DNA of 55,184 bases, taken from Candidatus Buchananbacteria bacterium. GTDB taxonomy: Bacteria; Patescibacteriota; Patescibacteriia; Buchananbacterales; UBA6539. Every line of letters begins with the position of its first letter. The stretch's first letter is position 1. The notes beneath the pieces are model-generated. The model did not search any database. It saw nothing but the letters and a program-made list of their open reading frames with translations, and was not told the origin of the DNA. The stretch is taken from assembly GCA_016930315.1 (NCBI GenBank), contig JAFGGX010000024.1:1-55184 (forward strand), written 5' to 3'. The translations under genes and the position numbers were made by a program. Below are positions 4,076 through 54,437 of the stretch, one piece after another.

Positions 4076-4267
4076 ATGAATATCGCAAAGAGTATAACCG
4101 ACTACTTTATCGGTGCTCGCCAAGAGCTCAAAAAAGTAGTTTGGCCAAGCAAAAAAGAAGTCATCCAACACACCTCAATGGTAATTGCCATCAGTCTGGG
4201 CGTTGCTTTATTTTTAGGTGTGATCGTCGACTACACCTTAACTTTTTTCTTAAAATTCATCATCTAA
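4076..4267 (+). CDS. secE: preprotein translocase subunit SecE
   Basis: 63 aa. Motif ELKKVVWPSKKEV followed by one C-terminal TM helix. Conserved position just before nusG. Confidence 0.85.
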   Translation: MNIAKSITDYFIGARQELKKVVWPSKKEVIQHTSMVIAISLGVALFLGVIVDYTLTFFLKFII

Positions 4268-10104: not shown

Positions 10105-11463
10105 ATGCCGTTTGATTCAATCAAACATACAGAAAAATCTCTAACTAACGGCGGGATGGTTTTAATTTTAAACACCGGCGCGGTTATCAACCCAGAAGCC
10201 GAGGCAATGCTTCAAGCGTTGCATTCACGTTCAACCGGCGGCATCAAAGAACATCTGCAAACCCTCGAAAAAAAGGGAGCCGATAAATTTATGGCCAGTT
10301 TTTATGTCGGCTACGGTCATAAATCAATTGGCGATTGCGGCAGCATCACTATTTTTATCGAAGGCGTTTCAATGTTAGCGGCAAAAGCCATCCAAGACTG
10401 GCCACTTTATAGCGGTCAAGAATCATCAACTCGCTATGTTGATTTTTCTAAACAAAAATTTATTGACCCAATCAAAACTACTGAATCAAACAAGCTGCTG
10501 GAAACTTGGCGAACATTTTATTTAGACGGATTAACCCCCGTTCAAGAATATTTAAAAAGTCAATTTCCCATCCAGCCGGACCAAAAAGAATCAACCTATC
10601 TAAAAGCTATCGCCGCTCGAGCCTTTGATATTATGCGCGGCTATCTGCCAGCTGGTGCTTCGACTAATTTAGCCTGGCACACCAATTTACGCCAAGCCGC
10701 TGATAAATTAATGCTATTGCGTCATCATCCGTTAAAAGAAGTCCAGGAATTAGCCGAAACAATCGAGCAGGCTTTAATCGCCGCCCACCCAAGTTCATTT
10801 GAAGCAAAAAGGTACGACGAAACCGAAAACTATAACCAGTTTTGGATGAAAAAATATAACTATTTTGATCAATCGGAAAGTTATGGCGATCAAGTCGCTT
10901 TATTACGCAACGATATCGACACCAAATCATTAGAAAATTATCGAGAAGTATTAGAAAAACGACCACCAAAAACCGAGCTACCAAAATTTCTAGCCGAGTG
11001 TGGTACTCTACAATTTGGTTTTATGCTTGACTTCGGATCGTTTCGCGACATCCAACGTCATCGAGCTGTTAAACAAAGAATGCCGCTAGTAACAACCAAA
11101 CACGGCTTTAATCAATTTTATATCAATTCGCTACCAGAATCTCTAAGGCCAGCGGCGAAAAATTTGCTCGATTCTCAAGCAGAAGAAATAAAAAACCTTA
11201 ATACTACACCAGAGATTGCTCAATACTATACCGCCATGGGTTATAATTTACCAAATAAAGTTACTGGCGATTTGCCTTCGCTGGTTTATTTGGTTGAATT
11301 AAGAGCCACTCGCTTTGTGCACCCAACATTGAGAGACAAAGCGGCTGCCATGGCCGAAATTATTAAAAAAGAATTCGGACCGCTGGGCTTAAAATTACAT
11401 TTAGATAATGAGCCAGGGATTTTTGATATTAAACGCGGTGAACACGATATTGTAAAAAAATAA
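10105..11463 (+). CDS. thyX: flavin-dependent thymidylate synthase, long two-module form
   Basis: 452 aa. The N-terminal half has FIEGVS...SGQESSTRYV (the ThyX-motif tail without RHR). The C-terminal half has FRDIQRHRAVKQ (RHR without the Ser...RY tail). Operon context is dut and tmk. Confidence 0.65.
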   Translation: MPFDSIKHTEKSLTNGGMVLILNTGAVINPEAEAMLQALHSRSTGGIKEHLQTLEKKGADKFMASFYVGYGHKSIGDCGSITIFIEGVSMLAAKAIQDWPLYSGQESSTRYVDFSKQKFIDPIKTTESNKLLETWRTFYLDGLTPVQEYLKSQFPIQPDQKESTYLKAIAARAFDIMRGYLPAGASTNLAWHTNLRQAADKLMLLRHHPLKEVQELAETIEQALIAAHPSSFEAKRYDETENYNQFWMKKYNYFDQSESYGDQVALLRNDIDTKSLENYREVLEKRPPKTELPKFLAECGTLQFGFMLDFGSFRDIQRHRAVKQRMPLVTTKHGFNQFYINSLPESLRPAAKNLLDSQAEEIKNLNTTPEIAQYYTAMGYNLPNKVTGDLPSLVYLVELRATRFVHPTLRDKAAAMAEIIKKEFGPLGLKLHLDNEPGIFDIKRGEHDIVKK

Positions 11464-28666: not shown

Positions 28667-29026
28667 TTAACATTTCTTTAAAAATCTAATATAACCGCTA
28701 ATTGCTTTCAATAGTTCAGTATATTTATTTGCTAAATTATGAGCAATTACTTGATCAATAAAATTCTTCTTTGCTGATCGTAAAATATTTCTTTTTGTTT
28801 CTTCTGCTTCAGCCTTGGCGATAACGCAACAACGAACTTTTTCCTTGACTGTGACTCTATTATAACTTTCAGCGATATTATTAGCCACCGAAGCTGACGA
28901 ACGGAGCAACTGATCGATTGAACGAAATCGTTCATCTTTGGGAAATTGCTTGGTAATCTGATAGACCTCAAGTTCAAAACGTTCCGCCATTTGATAAATT
29001 TTCAAATTTTCTAATCCAGTTGCCAT
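28667..29026 (-). CDS. four-helix-bundle protein (23S rRNA intervening-sequence protein family)
   Basis: 119 aa. LKIYQMAERFELEVYQITKQFPKDERF...QLLRSSASVANNIAES is typical of the family. Confidence 0.85.
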   Translation of the reverse strand: MATGLENLKIYQMAERFELEVYQITKQFPKDERFRSIDQLLRSSASVANNIAESYNRVTVKEKVRCCVIAKAEAEETKRNILRSAKKNFIDQVIAHNLANKYTELLKAISGYIRFLKKC

Positions 29027-34900: not shown

Positions 34901-35017
34901 TCAAGAACTGAGCTTCTTCCAGCGGTTATTCCGCCGACCCCGACAGCCCTCCGGTTGCCACTTCTTCGCGCGATTGTTTCGCCTGTACTTGCCATGACGC
35001 TTGCCTCTACGCTTCAT
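34901..35017 (-). CDS. 38-aa extremely basic mini-protein
   Basis: Not in the ORF track (under 60 aa). My translation is MKRRGKRHGKYRRNNRAKKWQPEGCRGRRNNRWKKLSS. AAAGGTGA lies just upstream of the ATG. A terminator follows. Confidence 0.4.
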   Translation of the reverse strand: MKRRGKRHGKYRRNNRAKKWQPEGCRGRRNNRWKKLSS

Positions 35018-35089
35018 AAATCACCTTTCCTTCCAAAGGTCGAGGGTTGACCGCCTTTTACCAGCGGCCACTGAAATGATCAGAAAAGC

Positions 35090-35275
35090 TTACGCGTGCT
35101 GATGTCTCTCTCGAGTCTTTCCCTGCCCATACCCACGAGTCCTGGCAAAGGCGGGGCACTTGTTACAGTCGATGTTCTTGCCATCTCCGCCCTTGCCCCT
35201 CAGCTTCTTACAATCCCTCCTGTTGAATCTAAGGCCACACTGCGTGGGTGATGCTGTCGATTTCTTGCATGACAT
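35090..35275 (-). CDS. 61-aa basic, Cys-containing mini-protein
   Basis: AAAGGAG lies 8 nt before the ATG. 5 Cys including CNKC. Lys/Arg/Gly-rich. Confidence 0.5.
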   Translation of the reverse strand: MSCKKSTASPTQCGLRFNRRDCKKLRGKGGDGKNIDCNKCPAFARTRGYGQGKTRERHQHA

Positions 35276-35368
35276 GCGAAAATCTCCTTTCTACGAGTCA
35301 TATCGAACAGAAATCAGGAGGCCAATTTGCAATAGCCTACCTAAATTAAATTAATACTATTCCCCTTT

Positions 35369-35386
35369 TTAGTCAATATTGACTAA
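35369..35386. promoter_or_regulatory. perfect 18-bp palindrome overlapping a -35-like TTGACT
   Basis: ttagtcaat|attgactaa, in the AT-rich gap between the pyrF terminator and the mini-protein genes. Confidence 0.45.
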
Positions 35387-35405
35387 TTTTTGAAAAAATT
35401 CAATT

Positions 35406-35461
35406 TTAAAAACAAAGACCCCGGCTCATCGTCACTGCTAACAGTAACCGACAAGCCGGGG
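35406..35461 (-). terminator. intrinsic terminator after pyrF
   Basis: ccccggct (35419-35426) pairs with agccgggg (35454-35461). Minus-strand tail is tctttgttttt. Confidence 0.6.
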
Positions 35462-35487
35462 GAAATTTTCCTCCAGTTGTATTGTAG

Positions 35488-36363
35488 TTAAGTAACCGTA
35501 ACTTCCAAGGCGTATTCGATTGCGTCGCGATACCGACGAGCAGCACTGGCCGCTTCAGTTGTAAAATCACTGCGCTGGCTGCTAGCATGAGTAATCGCGC
35601 TGGAGACATTAACGAGGAACTGAAAGTGCCTCGCATGCCGAACCGTCTCGACGATATCACCGCCCTGTTTACCAATGCCCGGCAAAAGTAGCGTGGTGGT
35701 TTCGGGGATGAACCCTACAAGAGAAGCAATCTCTTGGGGTTTGGTTGCCCCCATGACCAAGCCAACGTTGGCGGTTCCTTCTTGCTCTTGCCGAGCTGTT
35801 TCTACCGCCACTTTCTGCCACAGTTTGGGGTTTTTGATCGAATATTCTGCACCGTCGAAACCATGGAGAGGTTCGGACAAAGTACAATCCTGGTAGTCCG
35901 CTGCGCCGGGGTTAGAGGTACGCGCCAGGACAAAAATCCCGCACTCAGGTCCGTATTCCAGCCAAGGTCCCAGAGTATCCAACCCCATATACGGATTGAC
36001 CGTCGCGGCATCTGCTCCCAACGCTTTGAACATTTCGGCGACGTACGCTTTGGCCGAAGCGGCAATGTCGCCCCTTTTACCATCGACAATCACCGGCGTT
36101 TTGAATTTAACCTGGATTTCACCAATCAACTCGGGCAAGATCTCCGTCGCATTGAGCGCGGCGAGAAAGCCGAAATTGAGCTCGAAAGCGCAGGCGAATT
36201 CCGCCGTCGCTTTTACGATATCCAGACAAAACGCCAAAACGCTTCTGGCCCGATCCGGATCGACGTGTTCAGGCAACTTGTCTCGGTTCGGATCGATGCC
36301 GACACACAGCCTGGTCTTGCGTCCTTTTTGCACTGCAAGAACGCGGTCTCTGAAAGAGGCCAT
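35488..36363 (-). CDS. pyrF: orotidine-5'-phosphate decarboxylase, type 2 (long form)
   Basis: 291 aa. LCVGIDPN and VDGKRGDIAASA motifs. AAAGGAG RBS. GC-rich codons. Confidence 0.85.
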   Translation of the reverse strand: MASFRDRVLAVQKGRKTRLCVGIDPNRDKLPEHVDPDRARSVLAFCLDIVKATAEFACAFELNFGFLAALNATEILPELIGEIQVKFKTPVIVDGKRGDIAASAKAYVAEMFKALGADAATVNPYMGLDTLGPWLEYGPECGIFVLARTSNPGAADYQDCTLSEPLHGFDGAEYSIKNPKLWQKVAVETARQEQEGTANVGLVMGATKPQEIASLVGFIPETTTLLLPGIGKQGGDIVETVRHARHFQFLVNVSSAITHASSQRSDFTTEAASAARRYRDAIEYALEVTVT

Positions 36364-36435
36364 GACTTAAACTCCTTTCCGGTTGATGGTTAACCACTGG
36401 CGTGGCCGATTAAAATCACCTCACGTTCTCGCGAC

Positions 36436-37218
36436 TTAAGCCGCTCCAATCAATTTTGCCCAATCCTTTTTCGGGTCAGTGATCGCCTCGCTGCCGGCTT
36501 CACAGTAGGGACAGTTGTCGCGTTCGTAGTTCGGAACGTCGATCTTCAAAACTGGCAGAATAATACTGTCTCCGGCCCTGTTGGGAGCGGCTAAATCCGC
36601 CGGTCGGTAAATCAAGACCGGCGTATACCCAAAAAACTCCACGGCCGGGTTGGCTTGACGAATAGCAGCCTGAACGGCCTCGGGTGTACCACAAGTCGTA
36701 GTCAGTTCCTCGACATTAAGTACCACTTCGCCGGATGGGATGGCGCACTTCTGCCAGAGTTGAGTCTTGCCCTTCGGATCCGATGGGTCCTTTTGCAATG
36801 GATGCCAGTTTTTACCCAAAAGCGTCGCCACAGCGAAGGACAAGCCGATGGCCGAAGTTGCCGAGCCGGCCACCCATTGGAAATCACACGGATTGATACC
36901 TGAGGCTTGCATTTCATGGACAATTGCTTTGGCCATAAACATACAGAGAGCAGCATTACGTAAAACCATGGGACAGTTATAGTACGCCCCGCTGTGCAGC
37001 CCACTGCGCAAAACCACATGCGCGATATCCGGATGTTTCACTTCATGATCGGCCATTTCACAGTCAGGATGACGCCAACCCGCCTGGCAAGCACTGAAAA
37101 CAGACTCAACCAAGTCGGGTGTTGCATCTTCGATACCCAAACAGGAAACGATAGACATGGCGGTCCTAAGATCACCACGTCTAATCGCATCAAGGAATGG
37201 AATCTTCGGTTCAGACAT
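36436..37218 (-). CDS. type I phosphoribosyltransferase, orotate-PRTase-like
   Basis: 260 aa. LRSGLHSGAYYN resembles the PyrE substrate loop. VVLNVEELTTTCGT resembles a PRPP-binding motif. C-terminal CPYC. Immediately upstream of pyrF. Confidence 0.5.
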   Translation of the reverse strand: MSEPKIPFLDAIRRGDLRTAMSIVSCLGIEDATPDLVESVFSACQAGWRHPDCEMADHEVKHPDIAHVVLRSGLHSGAYYNCPMVLRNAALCMFMAKAIVHEMQASGINPCDFQWVAGSATSAIGLSFAVATLLGKNWHPLQKDPSDPKGKTQLWQKCAIPSGEVVLNVEELTTTCGTPEAVQAAIRQANPAVEFFGYTPVLIYRPADLAAPNRAGDSIILPVLKIDVPNYERDNCPYCEAGSEAITDPKKDWAKLIGAA

Positions 37219-37239
37219 GAGTCTAATCCTACCTTTCTC

Positions 37240-37273
37240 AAAAAAATGTAAAGGAGCGCGAAATGCCCTCCTT
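37240..37273 (-). promoter_or_regulatory. terminator-like hairpin in the 5' leader of the pyrE-like gene (candidate attenuator)
   Basis: Minus strand reads aaggag-N11-ctcctt followed by tacattttttt, located between the promoter and the RBS. Confidence 0.3.
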
Positions 37274-37291
37274 GATGTTCACTTATCAAAA

Positions 37292-37320
37292 AGATTAGTC
37301 TTTTTAAACCAACAAGTCAA
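37292..37320 (-). promoter_or_regulatory. promoter of the pyrE-like/pyrF unit
   Basis: Minus strand reads TTGACT-N17-TAATCT. Confidence 0.5.
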
Positions 37321-44896: not shown

Positions 44897-45016
44897 CTAA
44901 TAACAACACTCGCAAGCTGGTTTGCCCGAACCACAATCGCAGGGTTCGTAAGCACCGCAACACTCGCCGTAGGGCTTACCCGAACCGCATGGGCAATCCT
45001 CATCTAAATGTGGCAT
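44897..45016 (-). CDS. 39-aa mini-protein made of two SEC-C-type metal-binding motifs
   Basis: Not in the ORF track. My translation is MPHLDEDCPCGSGKPYGECCGAYEPCDCGSGKPACECCY. CPCGSGKxYxxCC is the SecA C-terminal (SEC-C) motif. The ATG lies 3 nt after the tatD stop. Confidence 0.55.
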   Translation of the reverse strand: MPHLDEDCPCGSGKPYGECCGAYEPCDCGSGKPACECCY

Positions 45017-47953: not shown

Positions 47954-48211
47954 GTGAGCAGAGCAACTGAAGACCGTTTAGTAGTAGTTGTAGGAGAACG
48001 AAGTATAACAGATTGTATTAAACGGCTAAACCGACTCAGCAAAGATGCCGGCATTCTAGGTGGCAAAAGAACAAAGGGGCCACGCCATCAGACCAGAAGT
48101 CAAAAACGCCGGAATAAAGACTACAGAGCCAGAAAACGCGTGGAACTTCGTAAACGAAAAACAAATCAGGCCAAAAACAGAAGAGATAAAGGAGGGAAAA
48201 CATCTCCTTGA
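47954..48211 (+). CDS. rpsU: 30S ribosomal protein bS21-like
   Basis: 85 aa with a GTG start. GAAAGGGGG lies 9 nt upstream. ITDCIKRLNRLSKDAGIL...RHQTRSQKRRNK aligns with the bS21 core FDVALRRFKRSCEKAGVL...EKPTTERKRAKA. Confidence 0.65.
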   Translation: MSRATEDRLVVVVGERSITDCIKRLNRLSKDAGILGGKRTKGPRHQTRSQKRRNKDYRARKRVELRKRKTNQAKNRRDKGGKTSP

Positions 48212-48249: not shown

Positions 48250-48285
48250 GCAGGAACCGGTTACGGTTCCTGCTTTCCTTTTATC
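48250..48285 (+). terminator. strong hairpin terminator (bidirectional, shared with rsmI)
   Basis: gcaggaaccg-gtta-cggttcctgc followed by tttccttttat. Confidence 0.7.
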
Positions 48286-49210: not shown

Positions 49211-50788
49211 CTAAAAACTTTTTCGTCGTAAAAGCCGATTGTAGGTGATGGCGAAACGATGCGCTTCATCTCTGATTTTTTGGACTAATTTCAAAGCATC
49301 AGATTTACGGTCTAATTTGATTGATTCGGAATTACCAGGCCGGTAAATTTCTTCTTGTTTTTTAGCCAAAGCCGCAATCGGAATAGTTAAACCTAATGAT
49401 CGTAAGGCCGCCAGCCCAGCACTCATCTGCGGTTTGCCGCCATCAATTAAAATTAAATCTGGCAAATCAGCTTTATCAATTTTCAATCGGTAATACCGCC
49501 GATAAATAATTTCGCGCATGGCATCAAAATCAGATTGGCCCGTCTGCCATTTAATTTTAAACCGCCGATAATTATTTTTGTCTGGCAAACCATCTTTAAA
49601 GCAAACCATCGAACCAACAATAAAACTGTCACCCAAATTAGAAACATCAAAACATTCAATCACCGTCGGCAGCTTTGGTAAACTCAAACTCTCCTGCAAT
49701 TCAAACAAAGCACTGTCGCCTCTTTTCAAACTAACTAAAATATTTTTTTTGACTAATTCTAAAAGCTGCAAATTGGTCCCGCGCTTAGCCATTTTAATCC
49801 GGACTTTTCTGCCAGCCAAGCGAGTTAAATAACTTTCAATTGTAGTTTTTTCCGGCAACTCAACAGGCGCCACCACTTCTTGCGGTAATTCATGACTGTA
49901 ATAATATTGTTTAACAAAACCGGCTAATAATTCCGGCAAATCTTGTTTGATTGATATGGCAAAAGAAAACTGTTTCCGACCAGAAACCACGCCTTTGTTG
50001 ATATTAAACAACTGAACAATAAATTTATTCGCGGTGATTATGCCATTAATTACATCTTGATCGTAATTTTTTTTGAGGTGAATCTTTTGTTCCGATTGTA
50101 AATTAACCAACGCTTTAATTTGATCGCGTCGTAATTTTGCTAGTTCATATTTTTCTTGACTAGAAAACTGGTCCATTTCTTTTTTTAAATCAACAATTAA
50201 CTTCTCGACCTTTCCTTGCAATAGCATCCGCGCCCGATCTAAGTCTTTTTTATATTCTTCCAAACTAATAATCCGCGTCCAGGGAGGAACCGAACACTTA
50301 ATTTTATATTTACCGGCAACGGCCTGAGGTTTAGTTTTGCCCACTCGCAACTTAAACAAAGTATTAGCCAGTCTGATTAAATTTCTTCTAGCTGTACCCC
50401 AAACATAAGGGCCATAAACTTCGTCTTTGTTTTTAAAAATTCGTACCGTTTCTAATCGCGGAAATAGTTCATTAGTAACTTTAATGTAAGCGTAACGCAC
50501 TCCACCTTTTAGCTCCAGATTATATTGTGGCTGCTGATCCTTAATTAGTCGCGCTTCTAAAAGTAAAGCTTCAACTTCCGAATCAGTGACAATGTAATCT
50601 AGGTTTTTAATTTTACTAACCAGCTGCTTGGTCTTGGGATCAACAATATTTTTATTGAAATATGAGCTGACTCGTTTTTTTAAATCTTTTGCTTTGCCAA
50701 TATAAATAATCTCATCGGCTCTATTTTTGAATAAATAGCAACCAGGGTGATTGGGTAAATTTCTTATTTTTTCTTTGACTATTGACAT
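49211..50788 (-). CDS. uvrC: excinuclease ABC subunit C
   Basis: Start set at the ATG at 50788 (MSIVKEKIRNLP...) rather than the TTG at 50797. GIY-YIG N-terminus (GCYLFKN...IIYIGKAKDLKKR) and a C-terminal endonuclease domain. Confidence 0.93.
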   Translation of the reverse strand: MSIVKEKIRNLPNHPGCYLFKNRADEIIYIGKAKDLKKRVSSYFNKNIVDPKTKQLVSKIKNLDYIVTDSEVEALLLEARLIKDQQPQYNLELKGGVRYAYIKVTNELFPRLETVRIFKNKDEVYGPYVWGTARRNLIRLANTLFKLRVGKTKPQAVAGKYKIKCSVPPWTRIISLEEYKKDLDRARMLLQGKVEKLIVDLKKEMDQFSSQEKYELAKLRRDQIKALVNLQSEQKIHLKKNYDQDVINGIITANKFIVQLFNINKGVVSGRKQFSFAISIKQDLPELLAGFVKQYYYSHELPQEVVAPVELPEKTTIESYLTRLAGRKVRIKMAKRGTNLQLLELVKKNILVSLKRGDSALFELQESLSLPKLPTVIECFDVSNLGDSFIVGSMVCFKDGLPDKNNYRRFKIKWQTGQSDFDAMREIIYRRYYRLKIDKADLPDLILIDGGKPQMSAGLAALRSLGLTIPIAALAKKQEEIYRPGNSESIKLDRKSDALKLVQKIRDEAHRFAITYNRLLRRKSF

Positions 50789-50815
50789 TTTAAACAAAAT
50801 ATAATATAAAATATA
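50778..50815 (+). repeat. 38-bp perfect direct repeat, copy 1 (uvrC start codon plus + strand promoter)
   Basis: actattgacattttaaacaaaatataatataaaatata. The + strand reads TTGACA (50782-50787)-N17-TATAAA. Confidence 0.9.
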
Positions 50816-50836
50816 TAATATTCCACTTCCACAAGG

Positions 50837-51028
50837 ATGGCAAAGATGGATAAACCGCTCTTTTTACCGTACGACGCATCAGGCACAACATACCAAGATG
50901 CCAACTATGAATTCTGCACCGACTGTAGCAGTTCGATTCACGAAAACCCGCAAACTAAATCACATACTTGCTGCCTTAATCTATCTTTTCGACCAGATCA
51001 CAGACCGATGAGAAATCACGACCTTTAA
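50837..51028 (+). CDS. GC-rich orphan mini-protein (63 aa; alternative start 50846)
   Basis: AAGGA is correctly spaced for the second ATG at 50846. Contains CTDC...HTCC. Promoter and terminator flank it. Confidence 0.5.
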   Translation: MAKMDKPLFLPYDASGTTYQDANYEFCTDCSSSIHENPQTKSHTCCLNLSFRPDHRPMRNHDL

Positions 51029-51060
51029 TTTCGTCTGCCTGGTGGCAACGAATCCAATAC

Positions 51061-51111
51061 GGCTCGAAAATTCTAACCCCTGAATATGATTTTCGAGCCG
51101 GTTTTATTTTT
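51061..51111 (+). terminator. intrinsic terminator
   Basis: ggctcgaaaat (51061-51071) pairs with attttcgagcc (51089-51099), followed by ggttttattttt. Confidence 0.7.
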
Positions 51112-51173
51112 GTAAAACTTCGCTCAAATACCTAACAGCACAAGAGCGTTTACTACACTTAGTAATTTTACAA

Positions 51174-51211
51174 ACTATTGACATTTTAAACAAAATATAA
51201 TATAAAATATA
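51174..51211 (+). repeat. 38-bp perfect direct repeat, copy 2 (promoter of the next cassette)
   Basis: Identical to 50778-50815. TTGACA at 51178-51183. Confidence 0.9.
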
Positions 51212-51238
51212 CAACCAATCCACTGGAGGTACATACGC

Positions 51239-51472
51239 ATGGGAACTAAAGACGGTCTTCCATCCTATGGCGACGATAAAAACGAAGGGCTATTACGCAT
51301 GGGAACTAAAGAGTCTTATCCATCTTGTAAACCCAAGCCGTCGAAAGAAAGTCCCGTTGAAAGGCGCCCATACCCCGAAGATAAGAGCAATGGAATGTGC
51401 TCAGGATGCGGAGCATTTCTCGATAATGAAGGTTTCTGTCACTTCTGTAACCCAAATGGCTGGCTTCGCTAA
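51239..51472 (+). CDS. GC-rich orphan mini-protein with a C-terminal zinc-ribbon-like CxxC...CxxC
   Basis: 77 aa. GGAGG lies 9 nt upstream. CSGCGAFLDNEGFCHFC. The N-terminus has an internal 60-nt duplication that includes the start codon. Confidence 0.55.
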   Translation: MGTKDGLPSYGDDKNEGLLRMGTKESYPSCKPKPSKESPVERRPYPEDKSNGMCSGCGAFLDNEGFCHFCNPNGWLR

Positions 51473-51523
51473 TTGGCAAATTTCCGCCGACCCACATTCT
51501 TCTTGGTGACAAGCGGAACCCCA

Positions 51524-51566
51524 GAGCCCTCGCGCGACCCTGATTCGCGCTTGGGCTCCTTTTTTA
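51524..51566 (+). terminator. intrinsic terminator abutting the uvrA stop
   Basis: gagccc...cgcgcga-ccctgat-tcgcgc...gggctc followed by cttttttat. Confidence 0.65.
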
Positions 51567-54437
51567 TTTCTTTAAAACTACACTCAAGTACTTACCAGTA
51601 TAAGACCACTTGGCACATTTAGCAATTTTTTCCGGCGTACCTTCGGCTACCACTCGCCCACCTTTGTCCCCGCCCTCTAGGCCTAAATCAACAATCCAAT
51701 CGGCAGATTTAATCACATCTAAATTGTGTTCAATTACCAAAACCGAATTACCTTTATCAACCAACCGATTAAAAACTTCCACTAATCTGCTGACATCGTC
51801 AAAATGCAATCCCGTTGTCGGCTCATCCAAAATATATAGCGCATTGCCGGCCTTACGCGACAACTCGGAAGTCAGCTTAATTCGCTGAGCTTCACCACCC
51901 GACAAAGTAGTGGCGCTTTGACCCAACTGAATGTAATCCAAACCGACATCAAAAAGAGTTTGCATCTTATGAGCGATGGCTGGGACATTTTTGAAAAATT
52001 CTAGCGCTTCTTCCACGGTCATTTTCAATACATCGGCAATCGTTCTATTTTTGTATTTAATACTTAAAGTTTCTTCGTTGTATCTGGTTCCTTTGCAACG
52101 CTGACATTCAATATAAACATCGGGCAAAAAATTCATCTCAATTTTTTTCACCCCATCGCCTTCGCATTCTTCGCACCGGCCGCCGCTGACATTAAAACTA
52201 AACCGACCCGGCTTATAACCACGCGCCCGGGCTTCTTTAGTGGACGAAAACAACTCCCGAATCTGAGTAAACACTCCAATGTAAGTGGCCGGATTTGACC
52301 GCGGTGTTCTGCCAATCGGCGACTGATCAACCATAATTACTTTTTCTAGCTTGCCATAACCTTTAATATTTTTGTGCTGACCTGGCCGCTCGCTGGTAGC
52401 ATAAAAAATCTTGTGCAAGGCCCGATACAAAATGTCATCGATTAAAGTCGACTTGCCCGAACCAGAAACACCGGTCACACAAGTTAAAACTTTCAATGGA
52501 ATTTTAACATCAATATTTTTTAAGTTATGTTGCTCAGCGCCAAAAATTTCCAGCCAATCAAAAATTCGCCGTCGATTTTCCGGAATAGCAATCTTTTTTT
52601 TGCCCGAAATATACTGACTGGTCAAAGAATTTTTGGCGCTGGCTAACTGCTTTGGCGTACCAGCAAAAATCAATTCCCCACCGTGCCGGCCAGCCCCAGG
52701 TCCTAAATCAACCACATGATCAGCTTCTAAAATAGTTTCTTCGTCGTGCTCAACCACTACCACAGTATTACCTAAATCACGCAATTGCTTTAAAGTGGCA
52801 ATCAATTTCTGGTTATCTCTTTGATGCAACCCAATTGACGGCTCATCTAAAATATACAACACGCCGCGCAATTCTGAACCAATTTGAGTAGCCAAGCGAA
52901 TCCGCTGAGCTTCCCCACCCGACAAACTACCGGCCGGACGATTTAAAGTTAAATAATCAAGCCCAACATTAATCAAAAAATTCAACCGATTGGTAATTTC
53001 TTTTAAAATTAAATTGGCAATTGCCAACTGTTCTGTATTCAACTTTAAGCTCTTAAAAAAAGCCACCAACTGTTCAATAGACATTTCGGCCACTTCCCAA
53101 ATATTATAACCATTATCAACTTCTTTTTTAGTTTTAATCTTTTTATTTCCCAATGTCACCGCTAAAATTTCTGGTCGAAATCTTTTGCCTTGGCAGGCCG
53201 GACATGGGCCCATGCGCATAAATTTGGCAATTTCATTTCGTCGATATTCGGATTCAGTTTGTTTATAAAGCCGATCCAGTTGTGGAATTACTCCTTCAAA
53301 TGTGCCCACATATTGATAGCTGCTGTTGCCACTACGACTGCCAATTTCAAACTTCATCTGCTTGTCGCTGCCAAACAAAATTATGTCTTTAATATTCCGC
53401 GGTAAATCATTCCAAGCTAAATTTAAATCAAACTTATAATGCTGGGCCAATGATTCCAAATGCTGATAGCGCCAACCTTCTCCATAGCTACGCCAAGGCT
53501 TGACTGCACCCTGAGCCACCGACAAACTTTTATCCGGCACAATTAAATCTTCATCAAATTCTTGCGAAAACCCCAAACCATGACAAGCCTCACAAGCGCC
53601 AAACGGCGAATTAAACGAAAACATCCGCGGCTGCAGTTCACCAATTGAAATATCGCAATCAGTACAGGCGTTGGCTTGGGAAAACATTTTTTCTTTTTCA
53701 TCAATCAAAACCAAAACCAACCCGTCAGCCAAATTGACGGCCGTTTCAACTGCTTCGTTTAGTCTGGATTTATTTTTAGTTTCCACTGGCAAGCGATCAA
53801 TAATAATTTCCAAATTATGCTTAATCTGCTTGTTAAGTTTAATTGTTTGCCAATCAGCCAATTGATAAACCTGACCATCAACTCGAACCCGAGCATAACC
53901 TTGATTGTGCCAATCTTTCAATAATTGTTCATAAGTGCCTTTCTTGGCTCTGACTACCGGTGCTAAAATTTGTAACTTAGCGCCTTTTTTTAAACTCAAC
54001 AAATTTTTAACAATTGATTCAACCGACTGAAAACTAATCTTTTTACCGCAGTTCGGACAATGGGGCGTGCCAACCCGAGCGTAAAGCAAACGCAAATAAT
54101 CGGCAATTTCGGTAATGGTGCCAACCGTTGACCGCGGATTTTTGGAAACCGATTTTTGTTCAATCGAAATGGCCGGAGACAAACCGGAAATCGAATCAAC
54201 GTCAGGTTTGTTCATCAAACCCAAAAACTGCCGCGCATAGGCTGACAAACTTTCAACGTAGCGTCTTTGTCCTTCGGCATAAAGGGTATCGAACGCCAAA
54301 GTCGATTTACCCGACCCAGACAACCCGGTGATAACTGTTAACTTATCAATTGGAATATCGACATTGATATTTTTTAGGTTATGCTGTCGAGCGCCCTTAA
54401 TTTTAATATATTGTTTTTTATTATTTGCCATATCCAT
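51564..54437 (-). CDS. uvrA: excinuclease ABC subunit A
   Basis: 957 aa. Two ABC ATPase modules (GLSGSGKST, GVSGSGKST, LSGGEAQR twice) and zinc-finger Cys clusters. Confidence 0.97.
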   Translation of the reverse strand: MDMANNKKQYIKIKGARQHNLKNINVDIPIDKLTVITGLSGSGKSTLAFDTLYAEGQRRYVESLSAYARQFLGLMNKPDVDSISGLSPAISIEQKSVSKNPRSTVGTITEIADYLRLLYARVGTPHCPNCGKKISFQSVESIVKNLLSLKKGAKLQILAPVVRAKKGTYEQLLKDWHNQGYARVRVDGQVYQLADWQTIKLNKQIKHNLEIIIDRLPVETKNKSRLNEAVETAVNLADGLVLVLIDEKEKMFSQANACTDCDISIGELQPRMFSFNSPFGACEACHGLGFSQEFDEDLIVPDKSLSVAQGAVKPWRSYGEGWRYQHLESLAQHYKFDLNLAWNDLPRNIKDIILFGSDKQMKFEIGSRSGNSSYQYVGTFEGVIPQLDRLYKQTESEYRRNEIAKFMRMGPCPACQGKRFRPEILAVTLGNKKIKTKKEVDNGYNIWEVAEMSIEQLVAFFKSLKLNTEQLAIANLILKEITNRLNFLINVGLDYLTLNRPAGSLSGGEAQRIRLATQIGSELRGVLYILDEPSIGLHQRDNQKLIATLKQLRDLGNTVVVVEHDEETILEADHVVDLGPGAGRHGGELIFAGTPKQLASAKNSLTSQYISGKKKIAIPENRRRIFDWLEIFGAEQHNLKNIDVKIPLKVLTCVTGVSGSGKSTLIDDILYRALHKIFYATSERPGQHKNIKGYGKLEKVIMVDQSPIGRTPRSNPATYIGVFTQIRELFSSTKEARARGYKPGRFSFNVSGGRCEECEGDGVKKIEMNFLPDVYIECQRCKGTRYNEETLSIKYKNRTIADVLKMTVEEALEFFKNVPAIAHKMQTLFDVGLDYIQLGQSATTLSGGEAQRIKLTSELSRKAGNALYILDEPTTGLHFDDVSRLVEVFNRLVDKGNSVLVIEHNLDVIKSADWIVDLGLEGGDKGGRVVAEGTPEKIAKCAKWSYTGKYLSVVLKK

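Follow-up and report, generated by a model that had tools for sequence, protein, structure and literature searches.

How did a perfect 38-bp direct repeat that includes a start codon come to stand between two repair genes? This question is raised by a contig of a Candidatus Buchananbacteria bacterium (GenBank assembly GCA_016930315.1, contig JAFGGX010000024.1, positions 1 to 55,184; this whole stretch is called the window), in which the repeat occurs between uvrA and uvrC and one of its copies contains the beginning of uvrC. An initial annotation, made from the sequence alone, had proposed that the two copies bracket a cassette inserted by recombination, or that the site was duplicated and its cargo replaced later on. 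We found that the 38-mer most probably forms the left edge of an old, imperfect tandem duplication of the entire uvrA-uvrC spacer. The feature is best explained as a fresh instance of a known process, tandem duplication, affecting a site whose make-up differs widely between related Patescibacteria.

The 38-mer (ACTATTGACATTTTAAACAAAATATAATATAAAATATA) is present as two exact copies with a period of 396 bp (Table 1). When up to three mismatches were tolerated, these two copies remained the only matches on both strands of the 55-kb window, and 0 matches were expected from 100 shuffles. In the repeat search the identity stretched to 41 nt with one mismatch. No further copy was detected in the window, in the fetched loci of relatives or in viral contigs. 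Copy 1 contains the uvrC start: the minus-strand ATG at 50788 opens with M-S-I-V, and the N-terminus of the encoded protein (MSIVKEKI) agrees with those of close relatives, which start with MS-x-(L/V)-S-x-K-L. On the plus strand both copies carry TTGACA-N17-TATAAA, facing two small open reading frames (ORFs), which we call ORF-A and ORF-B. This sequence is a plausible promoter. The distance between the hexamers lies within the spacing of 16-19 nt for sigma-70-type sites in both copies, and both can alternatively be read as N19-TAAAAT. An independent assembly of the same public run (SRR13394437) yielded a Logan contig (L001, 913 bp) that is identical to window positions 50824-51736 and spans copy 2 with ORF-A to its left and ORF-B to its right. 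Thus, the repeat pair, its period, the uvrC start in copy 1, the promoter-like sites and the bracketing of one promoter-ORF-terminator unit were all correctly described in the initial annotation.

A second, imperfect repeat had been overlooked. Positions 51102-51169 match positions 51562-51629 without gaps at 51 of 68 positions (75%), and the next-best match of this 68-mer in the window, on either strand, was 34/68. One partner is the genuine 3' end of uvrA. The other is a decayed copy of it, which sits immediately before copy 2 of the 38-mer. The uvrC-like codons of copy 2 had been said to lead nowhere. Instead, the minus-strand ATG inside this copy opens a 26-codon in-frame relic that ends in the decayed uvrA tail. 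Its translation (MSIVCKITKCSKRSCAVRYLSEVLQK, followed by a stop codon) consists of MSIV, a C encoded by one odd codon and KITKCSKRSCAVRYLSEVLQK, and it ends at a stop equivalent to that of uvrA. The genuine UvrA tail reads KIAKCAKWSYTGKYLSVVLKK, followed by its stop codon.

In ten related lineages the UvrA tail follows the pattern KIAKC-x-[KR]-W-S-x-T-G-x-[YF]-L, in which W, T and G are invariant. At these three positions the relic has R, A and V, and it therefore appears to have decayed without function. It carries the Ser that is peculiar to the UvrA tail of its own genome (YLS), where relatives have K or R. Moreover, it retains a Glu at a position where relatives have E, D or P and where the working UvrA now has Val. 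Taken together, the shared lineage-specific Ser, the retained Glu and the lost W, T and G indicate that the relic is a local copy from this lineage and not a distant import. Both copies of the uvrA tail appear to have changed since the duplication.

The two repeats divide the spacer into two adjacent head-to-tail units. In both of them the uvrC start and leader with the promoter-like site are followed by a Shine-Dalgarno (SD) sequence and a small ORF, a plus-strand terminator and a uvrA tail, and the T-run of the terminator overlaps the uvrA stop in unit 2 and the relic stop in unit 1. The ends of the units are homologous (left 38/38, right 51/68; spacings 396 and 460 bp), and the 26-codon relic is a novel junction that connects the far end of one unit with the near end of the next. 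Since a copy of the uvrA tail, which is the far end of a unit, is joined to the uvrC start, which is the near end, the arrangement bears the signature of a tandem duplication. The proposal of an inserted cassette is disfavoured by the same observation because an inserted foreign element would not be expected to bring along the 3' end of uvrA in its native place and orientation.

The present structure would follow if the 5' end of uvrC had undergone an unequal or illegitimate exchange with uvrA at a point 22 codons short of the end of that gene. The site of this exchange was perhaps an octamer, GAAAAAAT, that is found in uvrC (Table 1) and again at 51625-51632 in uvrA, where the tail homology stops. 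Such microhomology is suggestive. The octamer occurs 36 times on both strands of the window, and 18.9 copies were expected from shuffles. The duplication appears to be old because the spare uvrA tail has lost invariant residues and because the unit interiors no longer align. Small duplications seem to recur at this locus, since a separate 60-bp tandem duplication is found inside unit 2. What is repeated here is the leader's end together with the ATG and initial codons of ORF-B, which thus has two in-frame MGTK starts 20 codons apart. What had been taken for the footprint of a mobile cassette can thereby be replaced by a concrete history, in which unequal exchange between adjacent repair-gene ends would have left a surviving chimeric relic.

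Table 1. Features of the uvrA-uvrC region of the window (positions refer to the whole stretch)
Feature	Position	Strand	Remarks
uvrC	49211..50788	-	525 aa from ATG 50788; ORF with homologues named excinuclease ABC subunit C that have GIY-YIG, UvrC_RNaseH and related Pfam domains
Octamer GAAAAAAT	50766..50773	-	uvrC codons 6-8 (Glu-Lys-Ile)
Unit 1	50778-51173		396 bp; abuts working uvrC
38-mer, copy 1	50778..50815	no strand	uvrC codons 1-4 and 27-nt uvrC leader (minus strand)
Promoter-like site, copy 1	50782-50787 / 50805-50810	+	-35 TTGACA, N17, TATAAA
Candidate uvrC promoter (predicted)	50815..50843	-	TTGCCA-N17-TATTAT; 10/12 in consensus scan; overlaps ORF-A start
ORF-A	50837..51028	+	63 aa; likelier start ATG 50846, 9 nt after AAGGA; C-x2-C and CC; orphan
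Terminator A	51060..51111	+	perfect 12-bp stem 51060-51071 / 51089-51100, then TTTTATTTTT; from folding
Duplication junction relic	51104..51184	-	26 codons in frame: uvrC codons 1-4 and decayed uvrA tail (copy 51102-51169)
Unit 2	51174 to ~51633		460 bp; abuts working uvrA
38-mer, copy 2	51174..51211	no strand	TTGACA 51178-51183, N17, TATAAA 51201-51206; faces ORF-B
Internal 60-bp tandem duplication	51234..51324	+	in unit 2; 51234-51264 / 51294-51324; 84%, 19 nt exact
ORF-B	51239..51472	+	77 aa; GGAGG 9 nt before ATG; C-terminal C-x2-C-x9-C-x2-C; orphan
Alternative antisense ORF over ORF-B	51306..51512	-	68 aa from TTG, 63 aa from ATG
Terminator B	51524..51569	+	hairpin GAGCCC..GCGCGA / TCGCGC..GGGCTC, then TTTTTTATTT; from sequence and folding
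Genuine uvrA 3' end	51562..51629	-	last 22 codons, stop and two more bases; from repeat search; partner of the unit-1 copy
uvrA	51564..54437	-	957 aa; C-terminal 199 aa 78-81% identical to relatives' gene with UvrA_DNA-bind and UvrA_inter Pfam domains

Several observations weigh against a simple tandem duplication. Homology does not extend throughout the units, and the only thing common to both interiors is the order of landmarks. Local alignment of the interiors gave a score of 10.5 (null mean 10.6), and BLASTP comparison of ORF-A with ORF-B returned no match. From these data it can be seen that divergence between the units is uneven, with 0/38 differences in the promoter block, 17/68 in the tail and no detectable similarity in between. 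Very fast change or replacement of the interiors would have to be invoked. The present junction (ATGTCAATAGT-TTGT-AAAATT) is not the one expected from an exchange at GAAAAAAT; a 3-nt deletion and several substitutions separate the two. Finally, the -10 hexamer TATAAA is without the usual final T.

Identity of the 38-mer stops exactly where homology between the two contexts ends (50778/51174 on one side, 50815/51211 on the other), and for this reason gene conversion of the whole homologous block is suggested. Most likely, conversion between the copies together with selection on promoter and uvrC-leader function would have kept the promoter block identical. Concerted evolution by gene conversion between short tandem repeats is a known process, and it would account for an identical block that ends exactly at the homology limits. 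A candidate minus-strand promoter of uvrC is found beside copy 1 only. The other proposal of the initial annotation, a duplicated site with later replacement of its cargo, comes close to what the sequence contains, with divergence as an alternative to replacement.

To place the duplication in context, we compared the site with those of relatives. The homologues of the window's UvrC led to Buchananbacteria-like Patescibacteria, with UvrC identities of 58-68% among the relatives and of 61-64% overall for the closest proteins, and scans of GTDB and JGI revealed no UvrC that was more than 57% identical to that of the window. The gene order uvrB-uvrA-[spacer]-uvrC-rsmI-metG-cvpA-tatD was kept in ten contexts fetched via the UvrC homologues. 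In contrast to this conserved synteny, the spacer, measured from the uvrA stop to the uvrC ATG, varied strongly in length and content. It was empty in L137 (7 bp) and in L144/L145 (32 bp), so that the empty sites for which the initial annotation had suggested a search do exist, and other relatives carry different cargo. L074 has about 128 bp and no gene. Single opposite-strand ORFs were seen in L143 (410 bp; 73 aa, scoring 25.7 bits against the DZR profile with its cut-off of 27.3), in L138 (528 bp, GC-richer; Cys-rich, 84 aa) and in L139/L140 (about 690 bp; DZR / Zn_Ribbon_1 above cut-off, for L139 29.2 vs 27.3). The window follows with 775 bp and two units. L146 has 1000 bp and three opposite-strand units, each of them with a promoter-like site, SD sequence, ORF and terminator, and its terminators 2 and 3 are homologous. 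Larger cargo was found in L141 (1262 bp; an opposite-strand Metallophos_2 phosphoesterase gene) and in L147/L148 (4694 bp; Metallophos_2, bAvd and the reverse transcriptase of a diversity-generating retroelement, DGR). The two genes lie within 3-40 bp of each other in many distant bacteria, and because of this the tight pair looks ancestral and the spacer looks like a variable site in this clade. Reduced Patescibacteria genomes thus hold a well-delimited variable site with zero to three tiny promoter-ORF-terminator units or larger cargo. When we searched L146 for relics of a uvrA tail or uvrC leader between its three units, clear homology was confined to terminators 2 and 3, and the remaining similarity was not significant.

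Some details of these loci deserve mention. In L147 and L148 (306-5001 in both) the DGR is located directly upstream of uvrC and includes an RVT_1 domain, and the bAvd-like gene was called in L148 only. At 1040-1100 of L143 (minus strand) an ATG with a good SD sequence (AAGGAG) begins a frame of 20 codons that ends behind an A-run, and the zinc-ribbon ORF runs on from a later ATG in a different frame; a homopolymer assembly error or a frameshift may be the cause. In L139 (1495-4320) uvrA was called as two pieces (791 and 131 aa), and in L140 the spacer ORF contains a stretch of N (4100-4200). L139 and L140 encode the same UvrC, and the different lengths called for their spacer ORFs (183 vs 234 aa) are owing to these defects.

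A groundwater metagenome (X4) contained a closer relative, about 93-97% identical in uvrC and uvrA. In one X4 contig of 251 nt, a match to 51480-51519 (40 nt) comes after 186 nt that are unrelated. A second contig follows the window colinearly through ORF-B as far as 51487. In a third, which matches uvrA from 51560, the first 101 nt are unlike terminator B of the window. The spacer of this relative may differ from that of the window, or it may exist in two forms.

The comparison also drew attention to the beginning of uvrC itself. TTGACAT is the reverse complement of ATG-TCA-A, which encodes Met-Ser and the start of a codon beginning with A. All six lineages whose cargo lies on the opposite strand (window, L138, L139/L140, L141, L143, L146) have this heptamer, as does the empty L144/L145 site, and it is absent from the empty site of L137 (ATGTCGG) and from L147/L148 (ATGTCCA); the numbers are too small for statistics. 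At a distance of 17 nt an AT-rich hexamer resembling a -10 box was found in L138 (TATAAC), L139/L140 (TAGACT) and L146 (TATACA). On the simplest reading, the uvrC coding sequence would supply a ready -35 box and the AT-rich leader would easily supply the -10 box. A -35 box within the first codons of uvrC may explain why the cargo of most relatives faces away from uvrC.

Whether ORF-A and ORF-B are genes is a separate question. Each of them has an SD sequence at a good distance, its own promoter-like site and a strong terminator. They had been described as GC-rich, and their GC content (0.44 and 0.47) is indeed above that of genes (0.41), but just mildly. Searches of 5.8 and 1.8 billion proteins left both as orphans: no homologue was found for ORF-A, and the search with ORF-B returned ORF-B itself and one spurious match to a repeat protein (P0122). 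In Pfam and NCBIfam nothing significant was obtained for either ORF (0 Pfam families at E<=10 for ORF-B; sub-threshold at 14 bits for ORF-A), and neither reached the gathering score of a zinc-ribbon profile (DZR / Zn_Ribbon_1). The codon-usage scores of the two ORFs (-0.06 and -0.05) fall between those of real genes (mean 0.37) and of non-coding frames (mean -0.54), and they do not separate ORF-A and ORF-B from the overlapping alternative frames, which score equally. When the small ORFs of the window and of the relatives were compared all against all, similarity was confined to the level of the Cys motif. Among metatranscriptome contigs of the same study nothing from this organism was detected. 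Our best guess, by analogy with the same site in two relatives, is that the products of both units would be small Cys-rich, zinc-ribbon-like proteins.

A 166-nt X4 contig of depth 2 allowed a first look at the substitution pattern. It covers 51322-51487 with 11 differences. All eight listed differences are non-synonymous in ORF-B, and all four Cys are retained. In the antisense 68-aa frame, five of the same eight are synonymous and three are non-synonymous, and one of them creates a stop. For comparison, 16 of 17 differences in uvrA were synonymous. It appears that the unit-2 region is conserved to about the degree of a coding gene, yet the substitutions do not look like those left by ordinary purifying selection acting on ORF-B. 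They could reflect diversifying change on a Cys scaffold, coding on the antisense strand or a role at the RNA level, but eight substitutions are too few to decide between these.

It is possible, though we would not favour it, that the plus-strand ORFs are not functional products. The spacer would then act at the RNA level, by antisense or convergent transcription against read-through from uvrA to uvrC, or it would code on the minus strand (51512-51306). The orphan status of both ORFs is consistent with this possibility, as are their intermediate codon-usage scores and the ratio of synonymous to non-synonymous X4 differences (0 to 8 for ORF-B, 5 to 3 for the antisense frame, 16 to 1 for uvrA). 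Both terminators are predicted to act on the plus strand only, and transcripts from uvrA could read through the spacer. However, the good spacing of SD and ATG and the provision of one promoter and one terminator per ORF argue for translation, and so do the Cys residues of the C4 motif of ORF-B that are kept in X4. The corresponding position in L139/L140 and L143 holds an equally oriented ORF with a zinc ribbon, which scores above the Pfam cut-off in the former and just below it in the latter. The antisense frame, in turn, gains a stop in X4. No Rfam match was obtained in the whole window at gathering thresholds, and at E<=1 the spacer gave just two chance-level matches. Folding z-scores of -1.6 and +0.1 for the plus-strand units and -2.2 for the minus-strand spacer indicate no structure besides the terminators, and tRNA genes were not found in the window. 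If the small ORFs are translated, they would form a compact natural series on the origin, duplication and divergence of orphan small genes. If they are not, the locus would be an example of strong antisense promoters facing into the uvrA-uvrC operon.

A scenario related to tandem duplication, in which the two units were never identical, appears unlikely to us. Here, an unequal exchange by homologous recombination between diverged alleles of related strains, each with different cargo, would have occurred through the conserved flanks and placed both cargoes in tandem, and the array would record an exchange of allelic cassettes. Such an event would leave interiors that share nothing between homologous flank-derived ends, as is observed, and it would fit the variation of spacer content between relative lineages. 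A weak hint at two contexts comes from the X4 contigs, one of which joins 51480-51519 to sequence of another kind and another of which runs colinear with ORF-B, but these contigs have a depth of about 2. Alleles that are identical over a 38-nt AT-rich leader should nearly match in the conserved uvrA tail as well. Instead, the tails differ by 25% and the invariant residues are lost, and therefore the joining of two alleles would also need later decay and homogenisation. Moreover, the relic has this lineage's own Ser. Neither simple duplication nor the two-allele scenario alone accounts for the uneven divergence, since both need decay of the tail beside an identical 38-mer.

Integration of a mobile cassette (50816-51173) at the uvrC start, with the 38-mers as att core or target-site duplication, is very improbable. 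It is true that perfect 38-bp direct repeats flank the unit exactly and that empty sites exist in relatives. However, the supposed cassette ends in a copy of the uvrA 3' end, in its native place and orientation and in frame with the duplicated uvrC start. No integrase, transposase, other recombinase or reverse transcriptase was seen among the window proteins scanned, a set that leaves out the F-ATPase genes (39-45 kb) and metG. Terminal inverted repeats and a shared attC-like hairpin were likewise not observed, the two hairpins being unrelated terminators. Like the 38-mer, the interiors of the units have no second copy elsewhere in the window or in any fetched locus, and both ORFs are orphans. 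To our knowledge, a target duplication of 38 bp is far longer than those transposases make. For annotation practice this case advises caution, since a small unit can be flanked by perfect direct repeats without having been inserted.

An assembly artefact, in which two strain alleles were stitched via the 38-mer or the repeat was expanded, is hardly credible: although this is a metagenome contig, an exact 38-bp repeat exceeds small k-mers and the Logan contig breaks near copy 1 (it starts at 50824), the novel junction of relic tail, ACAA and 38-mer is present in two independent assemblies with more than 300 nt on either side in L001, stitching of alleles would not yield a decayed uvrA tail fused to uvrC codons, and the only alternative pairing through the repeat implies a free 396-bp circle.

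Two further candidates were rejected. The substitution pattern of ORF-B and the DGRs at this site in L147/L148 raised the question of a DGR target, but no RVT domain was found among the scanned window proteins and no template-like copy of ORF-B in the 55 kb. An integron was dismissed because no IntI was detected among the same scanned proteins, no attC was found, and the units have promoter-like sites of their own.

Tandem segmental duplication is a textbook process in bacteria; it proceeds via unequal crossing-over or illegitimate recombination, leaves a chimeric junction and is followed by divergence of the copies. The locus resembles it in its head-to-tail units with the same landmarks, its novel junction, its decayed gene fragments and a smaller duplication nearby. 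It differs in that the interiors are unalignable while one edge is 100% identical, and in that the duplicated unit is a 0.4-kb intergenic transcription unit and not a gene block, the flanking genes having lost nothing. With integron cassette arrays it shares small single-ORF units in one orientation, a fixed chromosomal site and a copy number that is variable between relatives. Unlike in such arrays, no IntI was seen among the scanned window proteins and no attC was found, each unit has its own promoter-like site and terminator, and the boundaries are pieces of flanking housekeeping genes. Hotspots of integration and variability between conserved core genes are an established concept of comparative genomics. 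The conserved synteny around a spacer of 7 bp to 4.7 kb with unrelated contents corresponds to this concept, but the contents are mostly tiny orphan units without mobility genes, and their growth would at least partly be local duplication. As for the possible products, ORF-B resembles zinc-ribbon small proteins (Pfam DZR / Zn_Ribbon_1) in its C-x2-C-x9-C-x2-C motif, and among the ORFs at this site in relatives, that of L139/L140 exceeds the cut-off and that of L143 narrowly misses it. In contrast to such proteins, ORF-A and ORF-B match no family, and the ORFs of the site are unalignable beyond the Cys motif. Small one-domain zinc-ribbon micro-proteins are the subject of a study in Haloferax (PMC6562870).

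A more general idea goes beyond the duplication itself, and we regard it as doubtful. The uvrA/uvrC junction might be a nursery for orphan small genes, in which the first codons of uvrC (ATG-TCA-A) fix a -35 box on the opposite strand, DNA that arises between the two genes can be transcribed away from uvrC, units are multiplied by unequal exchange, promoter blocks are homogenised by gene conversion, and ORFs built on a Cys scaffold turn over or diversify very fast.

Several other features of the window were observed. A gene of the 23S_rRNA_IVP / bAvd type, predicted to encode a four-helix bundle, lies between pheS and pheT (28667-29026, minus strand) with no reverse transcriptase nearby, and a similar gene is found between metG and cvpA in L138 (9478-9843). 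A 39-aa ORF (MPHLDEDCPCGSGKPYGECCGAYEPCDCGSGKPACECCY; 44897-45016, minus strand) with two CPCGSGK-type (SEC-C-like) metal-binding motifs lies where a GC-rich gap of 217 bp separates the ATP synthase operon from tatD. Between metG and rsmI, on the opposite strand, there is a basic 85-aa ORF (47954-48211, plus strand) with its own terminator (48250-48273) and a sub-threshold match to Ribosomal_S21 (22.5 vs 27 bits). The region 35000-37300 has a GC content of 0.49-0.53 (about 0.40 elsewhere) and may be foreign DNA; it holds an OMP-decarboxylase-like gene, a 260-aa ORF without a Pfam match and a 716-bp gap of overlapping short ORFs. ThyX (Thy1; 10105-11463, plus strand) is 452 aa long, about twice the usual length, with a weak LexA_DNA_bind-like stretch near its N-terminus. 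Finally, intergenic gaps of 300-1150 bp with short hydrophilic ORFs are numerous in the window, an unusual trait in a reduced genome.

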